Shown here: piece by piece, positions 8,210 to 59,167 of the stretch
Layout of the letters: each line of letters starts with the position of its first letter
Position numbering within the stretch: position 1 is the first letter of the stretch
Source of the DNA: Acutalibacteraceae bacterium
Lineage (GTDB): Bacteria > Bacillota > Clostridia > Oscillospirales > Acutalibacteraceae
Length of the DNA: 64,000 nt
NCBI GenBank assembly: GCA_045588855.1
Contig: JAZNEX010000115.1
Coordinates: 6,993-70,992 of the forward strand
Direction: 5' to 3'
The notes under the pieces: model-generated
Told to the model about the DNA's origin: nothing
Database searches by the model: none
What the model saw: the letters and a program-made list of their open reading frames with translations, nothing else
Program-made: the position numbers and the translations under genes

Positions 8210-8238
8210 TTGACAATTAGTTACCTGTGATGTATAAT
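8210..8238 (+). promoter_or_regulatory. sigma-A type promoter for tRNA-Gln
   Basis: TTGACA (8210-8215), 17-nt spacer, TATAAT (8233-8238); lies about 25 nt upstream of the tRNA 5' end. Confidence 0.6.
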
Positions 8239-8262: not shown

Positions 8263-8336
8263 AGAGGTATAGTGTAACGGTAACACTCCGGACTCTGACT
8301 CCGTCATTTAAGGTTCGAATCCTTATACCTCTGCCA
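8263..8336 (+). tRNA. tRNA-Gln (anticodon CUG)
   Basis: Hand-folded cloverleaf. Acceptor AGAGGTA/TACCTCT; D stem GTGT/ACAC; anticodon loop CTCTGAC (U33, CTG, A37); T arm TAAGG-TTCGAAT-CCTTA; discriminator G; encoded CCA. Confidence 0.85.
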
Positions 8337-8341
8337 AAGAA

Positions 8342-8375
8342 AACGACAAGTTGACATAAGACTTGTCGTTTTTTT
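8342..8375 (+). terminator. intrinsic terminator after tRNA-Gln
   Basis: AACGACAAGT / ACTTGTCGTT stem followed by a T-run. Confidence 0.75.
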
Positions 8376-8402
8376 ATCTTTCGAGAGTTTTTTAAGAAAA
8401 AT

Positions 8403-8445
8403 AACAGGGAGATGCTTCGTGAGGAAGCGTTCTCCCTGTTTTTTT
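8403..8445. terminator. long hairpin, bidirectional intrinsic terminator
   Basis: AACAGGGAGA...TCTCCCTGTT with inner GCTTC/GAAGC stem. T7 follows on the + strand and a TTATTTTTCTT tail on the - strand. On the - strand it ends the rsmF-like transcript. Confidence 0.7.
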
Positions 8446-8554
8446 AATATATAGGAAATTGCTCGCAAAAGTGAGCAATTTGCATATATCAAGAAACACC
8501 GATTCCCCCAAGATTGGGGGCAGGGGGTTGACAAATCGTAAGATTTTTTCTTAT
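8436..8554 (-). repeat. copy A of a 118/119-nt non-coding repeat element
   Basis: Its reverse complement equals 58205-58322 apart from 1 substitution and a 1-nt homopolymer length difference (aligned by hand). Confidence 0.9.
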
Positions 8555-8587
8555 TGTATCAGAATTTAATATTCAATCCAAAAGCAA

Positions 8588-9949
8588 TCAGATGTTTTGT
8601 ATTCTTAATCCCTTCGGATAATGATTTTTTGCTTTTCCGTTTACGACTTTGACTCCGCCGACAGTACAGCCTTTTACTGTAATTACTGCCCAACCATTAT
8701 CGCAATCAACGTTAATTTCTTCTCCGTGTAAATATTTTTTTAATTCAGCGGAGTTTTCGTGTAGTGCAATCTTTCGTTTGAATTTGTTGCCTAATCCCAT
8801 AAAAAACTGATGATGAGGTTGAATATAATTCTTTTTAATTTCACCGATTGTAATGCCACAAGAAAAAGCTGTACCGTTTTTTATGTCAATTTCAGGTGAA
8901 ATGTAAACAATATTATTGTTATATTTTCTGATATGTGCGCTGTTATACTCAGTCAGGATATCATCAAGAAAATCATAAACAGATTTATCTATTTTATCTT
9001 TTGGGTTTACTGCTTGTTTTTTATAAGTCACATTGGGTGAAGTATTTTTTAAAACAGCCATAAACTGTCCTTCACCATTTGAAAAATAAGGATAAAATCT
9101 GCGTGTATAGTGCAGGTTTTCAGATTTGCATCCGGCAAAATTAATTCCGGGTGCAGTATGCAGCTTTACTTTATCATTAACTTCACAAAGGCAGAAGTCG
9201 GGATGAGAACACAGAAAATTATCAATTACCATTTCATTTTCTTCAAGAGAGAATGTGCACGTTGCATATATAATATATCCGCCATTTTTCAGCATTTTAA
9301 CAGCATTTTCTAAGATTTCAGCTTGACGAACAGCGCATTTGCGAACATTATCTTCGCTCCATTCGTCAATTGCTGTGTTGTCTTTTCTGAACATACCTTC
9401 GCCTGAACAAGGAGCATCACACATTATCAGATCAAAAAAAGAAGGGTAGAGTGTTGCAAGCTTTCCGGTGTCCATACAGGTTGTTATTGTATTAAGAGCT
9501 CCCATACGCTCAATATTTCCGGTAAGGATCTTGCAACGAGAGGAAATTATCTCGTTTGAAATAAGAATTCCGTTAATTCCGAGTTTATTTCTTAATTGTG
9601 TGCTTTTACCTCCCGGGGCAGCGCACATATCCAGAATTGTCCATTCAGGATTAATGTCTATACATTCGGCAGGGGCCATTGCAGCTGGTTCCTGAATATA
9701 TATCATACCTGCGTGATGGTAAGGATGATTACCGGCTTTCTCGTAATCAAGATAAAAACCGCTGTCTGTAAAAGGTATTCTTTCATTGCCGAAAATATTG
9801 ATTTTTTCAAATTCATCGAGAGATATCTTGTCAGTATTAACGCGAAAGCCTTTTACTGCAGGCAGACTAAAGGATTTGATATAAGATTCATAATCAAACT
9901 GAGGAAAAGATTTCATTCTTTCCGTAAATTTTTCAGGTAATTTTTTCAT
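8588..9949 (-). CDS. rRNA cytosine-C5 methyltransferase, RsmF/RsmB (NOL1/NOP2/Sun) family
   Basis: SAM-MTase motifs DMCAAPGGKST and DAPCSGEGMFRK. ATG at 9949 is preferred over the upstream TTG at 9967. Confidence 0.8.
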   Translation of the reverse strand: MKKLPEKFTERMKSFPQFDYESYIKSFSLPAVKGFRVNTDKISLDEFEKINIFGNERIPFTDSGFYLDYEKAGNHPYHHAGMIYIQEPAAMAPAECIDINPEWTILDMCAAPGGKSTQLRNKLGINGILISNEIISSRCKILTGNIERMGALNTITTCMDTGKLATLYPSFFDLIMCDAPCSGEGMFRKDNTAIDEWSEDNVRKCAVRQAEILENAVKMLKNGGYIIYATCTFSLEENEMVIDNFLCSHPDFCLCEVNDKVKLHTAPGINFAGCKSENLHYTRRFYPYFSNGEGQFMAVLKNTSPNVTYKKQAVNPKDKIDKSVYDFLDDILTEYNSAHIRKYNNNIVYISPEIDIKNGTAFSCGITIGEIKKNYIQPHHQFFMGLGNKFKRKIALHENSAELKKYLHGEEINVDCDNGWAVITVKGCTVGGVKVVNGKAKNHYPKGLRIQNI

Positions 9950-9956
9950 ATTGATC

Positions 9957-10700
9957 TCAACTTTCAAATGTCAATTCACAGTGAAGCATACACATTGCAA
10001 CAGAACTTATTGCAGCTGTTTCTGTTCTGAGTATGCGCTTACCGAGAGAGATAATCTTAGCACCGCTTTCAAGAGCTGCAGCTATTTCCTTATCATCAAA
10101 GCCACCTTCCGGTCCGATAAATATTCCTATTCTCATTCCGGGTTTAATTAAATTTAAAGCTGCTTTTGTGTCAGCCATTCCGTTTTTTGCTTCATAAGGC
10201 AACAGTATTAAATCCAATTCGGAAGCAAAATCGATTGCTTGTCTGTAGTTCATTATGTTATTAATGCGGGGGATAATATTACGTTTGCTTTGCTTTGCTG
10301 CGCTTTCAGAAATTGCCTGCCAGCGTGTAATTTTATTAGCTTTCTTTTTTTCTTCTATTTTCGTGATACTGCGGGACATTTCAACAGGCGTAATTGAACA
10401 AACTCCAAGTTCAACTGTTTTTTGAATGATCAATTCAAGCTTATCACTTTTCGGAAGGCCCTGAAACAGGTGTAATTCAACAGATAATTCAGTTGATTGA
10501 TAATTTTCCTCAAGGATTTCAGCAGTTGTTACATCGTCAGAAAAAGCGATAATGCGGCAACGGTTGCTTATTCCGTTGTCACTTATGAGAAAGGTGTCTC
10601 CGATTTTCATTCGCAAAACATTACGTATATGATTGTGATCATTACCTGTAATAAAGTATTTATTATCAAGACTTTTCTCTGAAGCAAAAAAATTATACAT
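9957..10700 (-). CDS. rsmE: 16S rRNA (uracil1498-N3)-methyltransferase
   Basis: RsmE-like length and C-terminal GPEGGF motif. ATG at 10700 follows a GGTGAT RBS; the ORF-track start is 10718. Confidence 0.85.
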   Translation of the reverse strand: MYNFFASEKSLDNKYFITGNDHNHIRNVLRMKIGDTFLISDNGISNRCRIIAFSDDVTTAEILEENYQSTELSVELHLFQGLPKSDKLELIIQKTVELGVCSITPVEMSRSITKIEEKKKANKITRWQAISESAAKQSKRNIIPRINNIMNYRQAIDFASELDLILLPYEAKNGMADTKAALNLIKPGMRIGIFIGPEGGFDDKEIAAALESGAKIISLGKRILRTETAAISSVAMCMLHCELTFES

Positions 10701-57056: not shown

Positions 57057-58208
57057 ATGAAGATGTTAAAAAATGTAAAGATTTCGACAATTTTATATAT
57101 TTCGGTTATTTCAACCTTCTTTTTTGTTCTTGTTGTTTTCTTTATCGGTGGTGTTATACTTCCTGACAGGGAATATTCCGAAACTGAAAACCGAAAACTC
57201 GCCGAGTTTCCTGTTGTTACGGTTGAAAATATTTTTTCAGGTAAATTTATGACTGATTTTGAAACATATCTTTCAGATCAGTTCATCAACCGGGATTTTA
57301 TTGTTTCGGTAAAAACAATAATTTCGTCTGCATTGGGAAACAAGGAAGTCAACGGAGTTTATATCGGTAAAAATGACAGATTGTTTGAGGTTCCGTCTGA
57401 ATACAATATTGACGATCTGACTAATAAAGCAAAAATCATTAATGATTTTGCTGATAAGTATAATATTGAGAATAAGTATTTTATTCTTGCACCAAATTCA
57501 ACTGAAATAATACCGGAATTGCTGCCGTCATTTCTGAATTGCGAGAAGCAGCAATCTCGTATTGAAACATTTTATAATACTATTTGTGATAAGTATACGT
57601 GCATTGATTGTGTTGAGCCTTTATTACATCACCCGAATCGTAATGAATTATACCTGAAGACCGACCATCATTGGACTTCAACTGCTGCCAAGATTGTTTT
57701 TAATAATTTTGCAGACAAGGCAGGTCTTACAACAGAAGGTATCAGTTATCAGAATATTCTCCTGAGTAATAGTTTTTCAGGTACTCTGGCATCTTCTTCC
57801 GGTGTTGAAAAAACAACAGATAGTCTGGTAGCTATAGTCCCTGACGGAATTGCTGACACTTTCATTGTTCATAATTATGATACTCAGGCTAAGAAAACTA
57901 CTTTTTTTGAAAAAGACAAACTTGAAACAAAAAATCAATATGAAGTCTTCTTTGGCGGAAACTTCTCACGTATCAGAATTTTTACAGAGAATGTCAACGG
58001 ACGCAATCTTTTACTATTTAAGGATTCATATGCTAATTGTTTTATTCCCATGCTAATTCCTCATTATGAAAATATTATTATAATCGATCCGCGATATTTT
58101 TCCGGTAACATCGAAGATGTTATGGCTGATTATAATTACACTGATCTTTTGTTTTTATATAATCTGAATACTTTTCTTGAAGATACTTCTCTTGATACTG
58201 TAATATAA
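57057..58208 (+). CDS. DHHW-family protein (AlgX/AlgJ/DltD-like acyl-transfer partner)
   Basis: N-terminal TM segment and the KTDHHWTS motif; directly downstream of the MBOAT gene. Confidence 0.8.
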   Translation: MKMLKNVKISTILYISVISTFFFVLVVFFIGGVILPDREYSETENRKLAEFPVVTVENIFSGKFMTDFETYLSDQFINRDFIVSVKTIISSALGNKEVNGVYIGKNDRLFEVPSEYNIDDLTNKAKIINDFADKYNIENKYFILAPNSTEIIPELLPSFLNCEKQQSRIETFYNTICDKYTCIDCVEPLLHHPNRNELYLKTDHHWTSTAAKIVFNNFADKAGLTTEGISYQNILLSNSFSGTLASSSGVEKTTDSLVAIVPDGIADTFIVHNYDTQAKKTTFFEKDKLETKNQYEVFFGGNFSRIRIFTENVNGRNLLLFKDSYANCFIPMLIPHYENIIIIDPRYFSGNIEDVMADYNYTDLLFLYNLNTFLEDTSLDTVI

Positions 58209-58322
58209 GAAAAAATCTTACGATTTATCAACCCCCTGCCCCCAATCTTGGGGGAATCGGTGTTTCTTGATATATGCAAATTGCTCACTTTTGCGAGCAA
58301 TTTCCTATATATTAAAAAACAG
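58205..58322 (+). repeat. copy B of the 118/119-nt non-coding repeat element
   Basis: Equals the reverse complement of 8436-8554 (1 substitution, 1-nt homopolymer indel); overlaps the stop codon of the DHHW gene. Confidence 0.9.
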
Positions 58323-58347
58323 ATGCACTGAAAAAATGTACATCTGT
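58319..58347. terminator. bidirectional intrinsic terminator
   Basis: ACAGATGCAC / GTACATCTGT stem (1 mismatch) flanked by an A-run and a T-rich tail, between convergent genes. Confidence 0.65.
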
Positions 58348-58354
58348 ATATTTA

Positions 58355-59167
58355 TTATATATTGTAGCAGAGTTCTTGTCTGTTAATAAAAAAGTACAGT
58401 TCATTGATTCCGTGTTTTTTTAATAAATTATGGACTTTCTGTATGTCTTTATTTATGTCGATAGCATTATGGGAATCGTTGCCTAATGAAAGTTTTTTTC
58501 CGCCCAGATGTAAATACAAATCTATTATGTCAATGTCCGGCATTAAATAACCATTGTTATAACCTGAGATATTTATTTCAAGAACTTTATTTCTGTTTAT
58601 TACAACTCTTAGAATTCTTTCTATTTGTTCTAGGTAATGTTTGACTTCAACATTTTTATTATATTTGTATTTTATATATCTGAAAATTACGGTTATATGG
58701 CATAGTATATCATAATCATAATTTAACGCGGTCTGATACAGATTTTCAAAGTATTTCTTGATATACGCCTCAAGCATATCTTCGTCAAATGCAGAAAAGT
58801 CTATTGTTGAAAACGGCATTTCATATTTTTCAAATTTAACAGCATGTACCGAACAAAGTACAACATCCCAGTCAAATGAGCTTATGATTTTTTTGTAAAA
58901 AAATTCATCATATAAAGCATCTCCGATTTCTATGCCTGCAGCAATCATAAGCTGCTGTCTGTATTTTTTACTTAGTAATTTTGTTTCATTGTAGGATTTT
59001 TCTATTCTGCTGATCATTTCTCTATCTTTCGAATATTCACAATCACAATGATCAGTAACTGCAAAGCCGGATAAATTACCTGATATTGCATATTTTATCA
59101 TATCCTCAATTTTTCCGGTTGCATCATGTGAATAGCCTGAATGTGTATGACTATTATATAAGCTCAT
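58355..59167 (-). CDS. PHP-domain histidinol-phosphatase (HisJ family)
   Basis: N-terminal HTHSGYSHDA PHP motif; about 270 aa; GAGGT RBS. Confidence 0.8.
   Translation of the reverse strand: MSLYNSHTHSGYSHDATGKIEDMIKYAISGNLSGFAVTDHCDCEYSKDREMISRIEKSYNETKLLSKKYRQQLMIAAGIEIGDALYDEFFYKKIISSFDWDVVLCSVHAVKFEKYEMPFSTIDFSAFDEDMLEAYIKKYFENLYQTALNYDYDILCHITVIFRYIKYKYNKNVEVKHYLEQIERILRVVINRNKVLEINISGYNNGYLMPDIDIIDLYLHLGGKKLSLGNDSHNAIDINKDIQKVHNLLKKHGINELYFFINRQELCYNI

Follow-up and report, generated by a model that had tools for sequence, protein, structure and literature searches.

The two near-identical, inverted copies of a non-coding sequence found in the window (the whole 64-kb stretch of DNA that was analysed) are very probably a 109-nt non-autonomous, MITE-like deletion derivative of an insertion sequence (IS) of the IS91 family, which moves by rolling circle with an HUH Y2 transposase. 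The term MITE-like denotes here a miniature non-autonomous element and nothing further, as the terminal inverted repeats and target duplications of classical MITEs are absent. An earlier sequence-only reading did not recognise the repeat as an IS end, and named a match to a known IS terminal region as an outcome that would count against it. It was wrong on this point: both halves of the element correspond to the ends of ISs that encode an IS91-family transposase. The two copies are as follows:

8446..8554, plus strand: copy A of the putative miniature IS91-family element, 109 nt, with bounds set by 37 other copies and by full-length IS ends
58205..58313, minus strand: second copy of the element (copy B), 109 nt, which differs from copy A by one substitution

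Positions 8440-8554 are the reverse complement of 58205-58319 (115 nt, 99%), and the window contains exactly two occurrences of 30-mers from each half, where 100 shuffles lead one to expect none, so the pair of inverted copies is real. They form the only long repeat of the window, and nhmmer with the family profile found no third copy within the 64 kb. Two differences between the copies had been claimed. The substitution stands (8532 is C in copy A and T on the element strand of copy B, where 58227 is A on the plus strand) and is the sole difference. The second, a homopolymer indel, does not belong to the element. Comparison of the window copies with 37 further family members set the homologous unit at 109 nt, not 118/119 nt, and revealed that the preceding 'CTG' and T7 or T6 run form the ends of two host terminator hairpins that are unrelated to each other (8403-8445, and 58346-58314 on the minus strand). 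Since the run belongs to the host terminators, the T7/T6 difference lies in the target and outside the element. Throughout, the sense strand is the plus strand of copy A, and the orientation of the parent IS (terIS to oriIS) is that of the minus strand.

A chimeric join or a collapsed repeat during assembly, which the same reading had allowed for, has next to no probability as the source of the two copies. Members of the family do sit at contig ends in seven loci (L003, L006, L012, L032, L033, L046 and L069, the last from another assembly that breaks off 22 nt into the element). Against this, both window copies lie inside coherent gene contexts with unique flanks, and copy B was recovered at the identical place and with the same junctions in a second, independent assembly of the species from a metagenome (L068, ERZ27227498 k141_12960; 98.35% nucleotide identity over 16.9 kb). 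The latter represents a sister strain, and every protein looked up in an exact-protein comparison differs between it and the window strain.

Each copy is composed of two unlike halves, which in copy A, all on the plus strand, contain the following features:

8446..8490, plus strand: oriIS-derived half, ~45 nt, with terminal motif and subterminal palindrome
8450-8457, plus strand: terminal motif TATAGGAA, the reverse complement of the IS91/ISCR oriIS signature TTCCTATA
8456-8481, plus strand: subterminal palindrome AAATTGCTC/GAGCAATTT of the oriIS half
8491..8554, plus strand: terIS-derived half, ~64 nt, which aligns to the left ends of full-length ISs
8492-8497, plus strand: AAGAAA box of the terIS half
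8505-8531, plus strand: GC-rich stem-loop core CCCCCAAGATTGGGGGCAGGGGGTTGA, which is also identical in locus L038
8533-8546, plus strand: terminal hairpin AAATC-GTAA-GATTT of the terIS half
8544-8549, plus strand: T-run of the terIS half
8550-8554, plus strand: terminal CTTAT of the terIS half

Read along this strand, the element starts with AATATATAGG, continues through the palindrome, GCATATATC, the AAGAAA box and CACCGATT to the stem-loop CCCCC-AAGATT-GGGGG, and is completed by CAGGGGGTTGA, the terminal hairpin running into T6, and CTTAT. The window subtype carries five additional bases (ATAAG) beyond the A-run at its terIS end and its terminal hairpin is weak (5 bp). Folding places subterminal palindromes at both ends of the element and the GC-rich stem-loop at the left end, as in the IS91 family. 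Stem pairs of the palindrome covary, with A-T replaced by G-C (10 versus 8 sequences). Inspection of both copies and the 37 relatives found no terminal inverted repeats, the first and last 17 nt not being complementary. It likewise found no target-site duplication, the flanks having in common only the host T-run on one side. Members of the IS91 family likewise make no target duplication, possess subterminal palindromes and insert at a target that adjoins oriIS and is similar to the terIS cleavage site (PMC13181058).

Genome contigs, one genome per species, were scanned with a 21-mer of the GC core. This identified 50 loci in many Clostridia metagenome-assembled genomes (MAGs), among them Acutalibacteraceae, Oscillospiraceae, Ructibacterium, Lachnospiraceae and others, with 1-4 matches per genome, several of which were at contig ends. 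At least 39 of them hold the short element in full, at 106-122 nt and with identical architecture. The GC core and GTTGA are invariant across them; the sequences of the 5′ palindrome and the 3′ hairpin vary by subfamily, with pairing kept. The median identity of copies is 97% within genomes versus 75% between genomes, which is the pattern of a proliferating element and not of a conserved gene. The earlier reading, which had offered recent copying (by mobility or gene conversion) or functional constraint, is supported in part, namely in its mobility branch. One copy, at an unrelated site in an Acutalibacteraceae MAG (L019, JAZTWN010000036, 7336-7441), is identical in sequence to copy A, suggesting a recently active or horizontally shared master sequence. 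In L031 (6055-6268) two short elements are arranged head-to-tail. Solitary oriIS-like palindromes adjoin element ends at L044 1196-1225 and L012 53-80 (e.g. ACTTTATAGGAAATTCCTTCCTATAAAGT followed by AAAAAG), and may be remnants or minimal oriIS units. One further match, from a Ktedonobacterales MAG (L027, ~560-680), was rejected as a family member; it lies in an unrelated phylum within a GC-rich tandem-like repeat (CCCCCAAGATTGGGGGCAGGGGGG... with variants) and probably reflects chance or another family of repeats. Plasmid and phage sequences gave no match to the element by blastn, nor did viral contigs match two 20-21-mers taken from it.

The connection to a transposase came from a Lachnospiraceae locus (L038), in which the 3′ half of the element (core, hairpin and T-run) precedes by ~60 nt, in antisense orientation, an ORF that encodes the Pfam domains Zn_Tnp_IS91 (4e-24) and Y2_Tnp. 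A first search for homologues returned only truncated proteins of at most 285 aa, and intact 383-aa proteins were retrieved with a stitched N- plus C-terminal query; P0119 and P0030 were set aside as degraded copies. The intact homologue P0202 (383 aa) scores 322.7 bits on the NCBIfam equivalog transpos_IS91 (cutoff 125), contains Pfam Y2_Tnp (4e-42) and is less than 35% identical to every transposase in the PLSDB plasmid collection. Intact 383-aa homologues are extremely abundant in gut metagenomes. Approximately 55 independent full-length insertions (L057-L067, L072-L151), mainly on Lachnospiraceae-type and human-gut contigs, define the ends of these parent ISs, which are 1.6-1.7 kb long. 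The left end consists of (T)AAAAAA, a small hairpin, TTCAAC, TCCCCTGCCCCTCAATCTTGAGGGG and a T-rich run, with the start of tnpA ~90 nt inside; just outside it the left flanks diverge sharply and are mutually unrelated. At the right end, tnpA is followed by a conserved 57-aa ORF, a variable palindrome and then TTTCCTATAAAG(T/C). The 57-aa ORF lies 48 nt downstream of tnpA (L058 2400-2573, with equivalents in L059-L067) and has no Pfam match. A second short element of ~150 nt was also observed head-to-tail after IS right ends (L058 ~2668-2800, also L062-L067). It starts AAAAAAGAATGTGCCTTGGCACATTC, ends GGAAACGAAGTTTCCTATACGAT before another A-run, is without the CCCCTGCCCC core, and looks like another IS91-type miniature family.

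The ends of the short element are homologous to those of these transposase-bearing ISs. On the terIS side the alignment with full-length left ends covers ~64 nt (scores of 69 for L100, 64 for L117 and 62 for L084), extending in IS orientation through the core to GGTGTTTCTT, and every full-length left end is matched by the family profile (nhmmer). On the oriIS side, the short element and the IS right ends have in common a palindrome with TTTCCTATA after it. An exact 13-mer of the element's oriIS half, GCAATTTCCTATA, recurs in the right end of L084, and in IS orientation the element ends ...GCGAGCAATTTCCTATATATT, with a distance of 8 nt from TTTCC to the terminus, as in L084. The similarity on this side is limited to the 13-mer, the architecture of the palindrome and the spacing to the end, and supports homology less strongly than that on the terIS side; the oriIS half of the profile had no significant nhmmer match at full-length right ends. 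Moreover, the oriIS end of the element (...GAGCAATTTCCTATATATT in IS orientation) carries the signature TTCCTATA when matched against the oriIS of ISCR1 and ISCR27, published as GTGGTTTATACTTCCTATACCC and GCGGTTGAACTTCCTATACC respectively; ISCRs belong to the same rolling-circle family. Because both IS ends are matched, the element can be described as the terIS side plus the oriIS side with the middle deleted. No IS91 transposase gene is present in the 64-kb window or in the 8-kb loci that contain short copies, and none of 80 metagenome loci contained a full-length IS with the window-type palindrome AAATTGCTC...GAGCAATTT.

Small, multicopy, intergenic, hairpin-forming and non-coding repeats that often lie near terminators are familiar from Correia, RUP, BOX and REP/BIME elements and from the IS200/IS605-derived PATEs. 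The present element is likewise short, hairpin-rich and free of ORFs, and is found near terminators as are many REPs and PATEs. It could accordingly be imagined as a REP/BIME or PATE palindromic repeat, moved by a Y1 HUH transposase (RAYT or the TnpA of IS200/IS605), or as a MITE descended from a DDE transposon. Whereas REPs and PATEs rely on Y1 transposases, the only transposase found joined to the present ends is of the IS91 Y2 type, and TTCCTATA is an oriIS motif peculiar to IS91/ISCR. A DDE-type MITE is excluded because neither hallmark of classical MITEs, terminal inverted repeats and target duplications, is present on inspection. We consider an origin of either kind extremely improbable, and retain descent from an IS91-family IS.

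Both insertions in the window lie directly after intrinsic terminators, between convergent transcription units. The relevant features are:

8403..8445, plus strand: host intrinsic terminator (hairpin and T7) downstream of tRNA-Gln, the insertion target of copy A and outside the element
8588-9967, minus strand: rsmF-type methyltransferase gene, whose 3′ end faces copy A
57057-58208, plus strand: DHHW-family gene, convergent at copy B
58206-58208, plus strand: TAA stop codon of the DHHW-family gene, overlapped by the end of copy B
58314..58346, minus strand: host intrinsic terminator of the PHP-domain gene (hairpin CAGATGTAC...GTGCATCTG and T6), the insertion target of copy B
58355-59167, minus strand: PHP-domain gene upstream of copy B

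Copy A separates tRNA-Gln and its terminators from the 3′ end of the rsmF-type gene, and copy B separates the PHP-domain gene and its terminator from the DHHW-family gene. The stem sequences of the two terminators are unrelated, as judged by folding. The tRNA-Gln(CTG) gene stands alone at 8263-8336, behind a perfect TTGACA-17-TATAAT promoter (8210-8238), and is followed by a first terminator hairpin (~8339-8376) upstream of the second, which copy A abuts. The description of both copies as intergenic holds, with the nuance that the stop codon of the DHHW-family gene lies inside the last bases of copy B. That the end of the convergent gene falls 4-7 nt inside the extracted copy recurs in many loci (extracts of subfamily 2 include 5 nt of flank). 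Often, then, the insertion has occurred at the end of the convergent gene downstream, or within that end, and the element supplies its TAA stop codon.

The site of copy B is empty in a related Acutalibacteraceae MAG (L071). Here the synteny is MBOAT and DHHW, convergent with PHP, CinA and TrkH, and the spacer of 43 nt contains the terminator hairpin only, versus 146 nt in the window. The DHHW proteins are 67% identical, and since this sole empty site is in a species at that level of protein identity, the exact pre-insertion sequence is not reconstructable.

The preference for terminators extends to the family as a whole. Among the short copies, a T-run of at least 5 lies directly upstream in 34/39 and an upstream hairpin of -8 kcal/mol or stronger in 32/39. 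The gene upstream of the terminator is co-oriented in 26/31, and the downstream gene is convergent in 24/32. In full-length IS loci, 63/65 oriIS-like ends have at least 5 A in the first 8 nt of their distinct right flanks, and a strong hairpin was found in 51/65 of the same flanks. In short and long forms alike, the oriIS end therefore falls precisely where a terminator T-tract stops. On the IS strand this target reads as an A6-7 run and hairpin immediately adjacent to oriIS. The terIS end itself starts TAAAAAA and so resembles the target, as expected of an IS91-family element with a specific target at oriIS. The left end (TAAAAAA and hairpin) mimics a terminator, and hence the target, which would account for the head-to-tail tandems of L031, L092 and L117. 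In L092 and L117 the right end of one IS abuts the left end of another.

Near-identity of the copies might instead reflect gene conversion or selection acting on immobile, domesticated sequences that the host uses as bidirectional terminators or for binding. In favour of this, two strains 1.65% apart both have copy B, fixed and with only one change, and the element lies between convergent genes, to which it supplies a stop codon as well as a hairpin and T-run. Nevertheless, 1-2 differences in 109 nt is the neutral prediction at 1.65% divergence, the full-length IS likewise prefers sites after terminators, and the copies are few per genome and at unrelated sites, with no indication of a host function. 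Domestication is therefore highly improbable, and we return to a mobile IS91 derivative. The elements may still act as portable terminators or as stop-codon donors between convergent genes, and because the insertion of copy B is common to two strains 1.65% apart, activity need not be current.

The stability of the predicted folds raises the question of an RNA. Both strands fold far more stably than shuffled sequences (z ~ -5 to -6.5, with -6.0 and -6.5 on the sense strand), and in most subfamilies the 3′ end is like an intrinsic terminator. Moreover, the box 5′ of the GC core (8492-8497) is complementary to the arm of the 3′-terminal hairpin and the T-run (8544-8552). Across subfamilies the box varies (AAGAAA in the window, and AAAGTGT, AAAGTAT, AAAAGTT and AAAAAAGATTT elsewhere) and covaries with the terminal arm, with a mean longest match of 6.65 versus 5.76 +/- 0.14 in 500 permutations. 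Full-length ISs have a T-run at the equivalent place. The covarying box could be a single-stranded DNA guide for recognition of end or target, or a terminator/antiterminator in RNA. Under the latter reading, the element would encode a small RNA with defined structure, or a switch that acts in cis as RNA, made up of a 5′ hairpin, the GC stem-loop, and a terminator hairpin with U-run whose 3′ arm can also pair with the upstream box.

The Rfam results offer such an RNA little. At gathering thresholds no Rfam 15 family matches either copy, and across the whole window only tRNA-Gln and a T-box leader were found (the latter RF00230, 63402-63637 on the plus strand, 119.9 bits). A weak match to RsaD, an sRNA of S. 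aureus, at copy A (8399-8564, minus strand; 38.3 bits, E = 1.3e-5) could be counted in its favour, but was rejected. It is below the gathering threshold of 50, lies on the opposite strand, relies on the host terminator and has no counterpart at copy B, and was judged to be a resemblance between series of hairpins. Furthermore, hairpins and covariation are equally expected of single-stranded DNA recognised by an HUH transposase, and the two halves are themselves ends of an IS that carries a transposase. Nor is there a consistent regulated gene, since the elements occur in unrelated contexts and face a convergent downstream gene in 24/32. A conserved upstream promoter is absent because the flank is a host terminator. 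An RNA function is thus very unlikely to explain the element, and the IS91-derived miniature remains the preferred reading. Outward sigma-70-like promoters (TTGACA-18-TATTGT at 8528-8557 in copy A, TTGATA-18-TATATT in copy B) were also considered and dropped: the -10 box is half flank, the number of matches is that expected from shuffles, and GTTGA simply belongs to the conserved core.

How such a miniature would move can be proposed from IS91, IS801 and IS1294. Only the cis-acting ends would have been kept: a terIS end of ~64 nt, comprising the A-run, the small hairpin and the GC-rich stem-loop CCCCCTGCCCCCAATCTTGGGGG, and an oriIS end of ~45 nt, comprising the palindrome, TTTCCTATA and then 4 nt. 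A transposase supplied in trans, presumably by a partner IS elsewhere in the genome, would nick at the oriIS end, and one strand would be displaced as far as terIS, releasing a single-stranded circle with the oriIS-terIS junction ...CCTATATATT joined to ATAAGAAAAAA.... The circle would then integrate beside a short specific target without duplicating it. For the Clostridia lineage, this target is the end of the T-tract of a rho-independent terminator and not GTTC/CTTG. Bearing on mobilisation are the several near-identical copies per genome, the one empty orthologous site and the tandems. More tentatively, the Clostridia IS91 lineage might find its own terIS end and the terminator T-tract by DNA-DNA pairing with an internal guide box, although we regard this as rather unlikely. 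The candidate guide would be the T-rich segment just inside the GC core, which in the miniatures covaries with the terminal hairpin arm. It would be analogous to the guide sequences of IS200/IS605; for the IS91 family we found none described.

Among the closest known systems are IS91, IS801 and IS1294. In common with these, the ISs described here have a Y2 HUH transposase (transpos_IS91, Zn_Tnp_IS91 and Y2_Tnp), asymmetric ends with subterminal palindromes, a GC-rich left stem-loop, no inverted repeats or duplication, and a short terIS-like target next to oriIS. They differ in that the target is an A6-7 run and hairpin instead of the classical GTTC/CTTG. Gene content differs as well: IS91 has orf121 upstream of tnpA, the Clostridia ISs have the 57-aa ORF downstream, and the window element has no gene.

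Protein-less forms that retain cis-acting ends and use TnpA in trans have precedents in the laboratory-made mini-IS91 and in the IS801 miniatures of 229-679 nt (PMC13181058, PMC3189936). Mini-IS91, which consists of 89 bp of terIS and 82 bp of oriIS, transposes with TnpA in trans (PMC13181058). Miniature derivatives of IS801 were mobilised in vivo, and the left end of the family has a conserved GC-rich stem-loop (PMC3189936). The IS801 miniatures are, however, one-ended, retaining the right end only and stopping at a chance tetranucleotide, whereas here both ends are kept (~64 and 45 nt), in a family of 106-122-nt elements that is widespread and has diversified.

ISCRs share the oriIS signature TTCCTATA and the rolling-circle family, but their transposases form a separate clade (P0202 scores 33 bits on NCBIfam ISCR_clade_Ia against a cutoff of 925) and they have become known through gene capture beside resistance genes in Proteobacteria rather than through miniature derivatives. 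Non-autonomous Helitrons are similarly short and protein-less, with asymmetric ends, a subterminal 3′ hairpin, no duplication and a short AT-rich target; they are nonetheless eukaryotic, depend on a Rep-helicase transposase and have no sequence relationship to the present element. We found no literature describing the IS91 lineage reported here or two-ended miniature elements derived from IS91.

The element is an ordinary kind of selfish DNA, belonging to an IS91-family lineage that we did not find described. A candidate novel non-coding RNA is thereby replaced by a concrete annotation, namely IS91-derived miniatures and their parent ISs, widespread in gut Clostridia. In practice, the miniatures break short-read assemblies at contig ends, and because of their hairpins and terminator-like end they can be mistaken for sRNAs or riboswitch-like leaders. 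For the biology of the family, they provide a natural two-ended miniature where mainly one-ended fragments are documented, and a terminator T-tract as the target, unlike the GTTC/CTTG tetranucleotides, which points to a 'safe-haven' strategy of insertion. Lastly, the covarying internal box could bear on how Y2 transposases recognise the ends of their elements.
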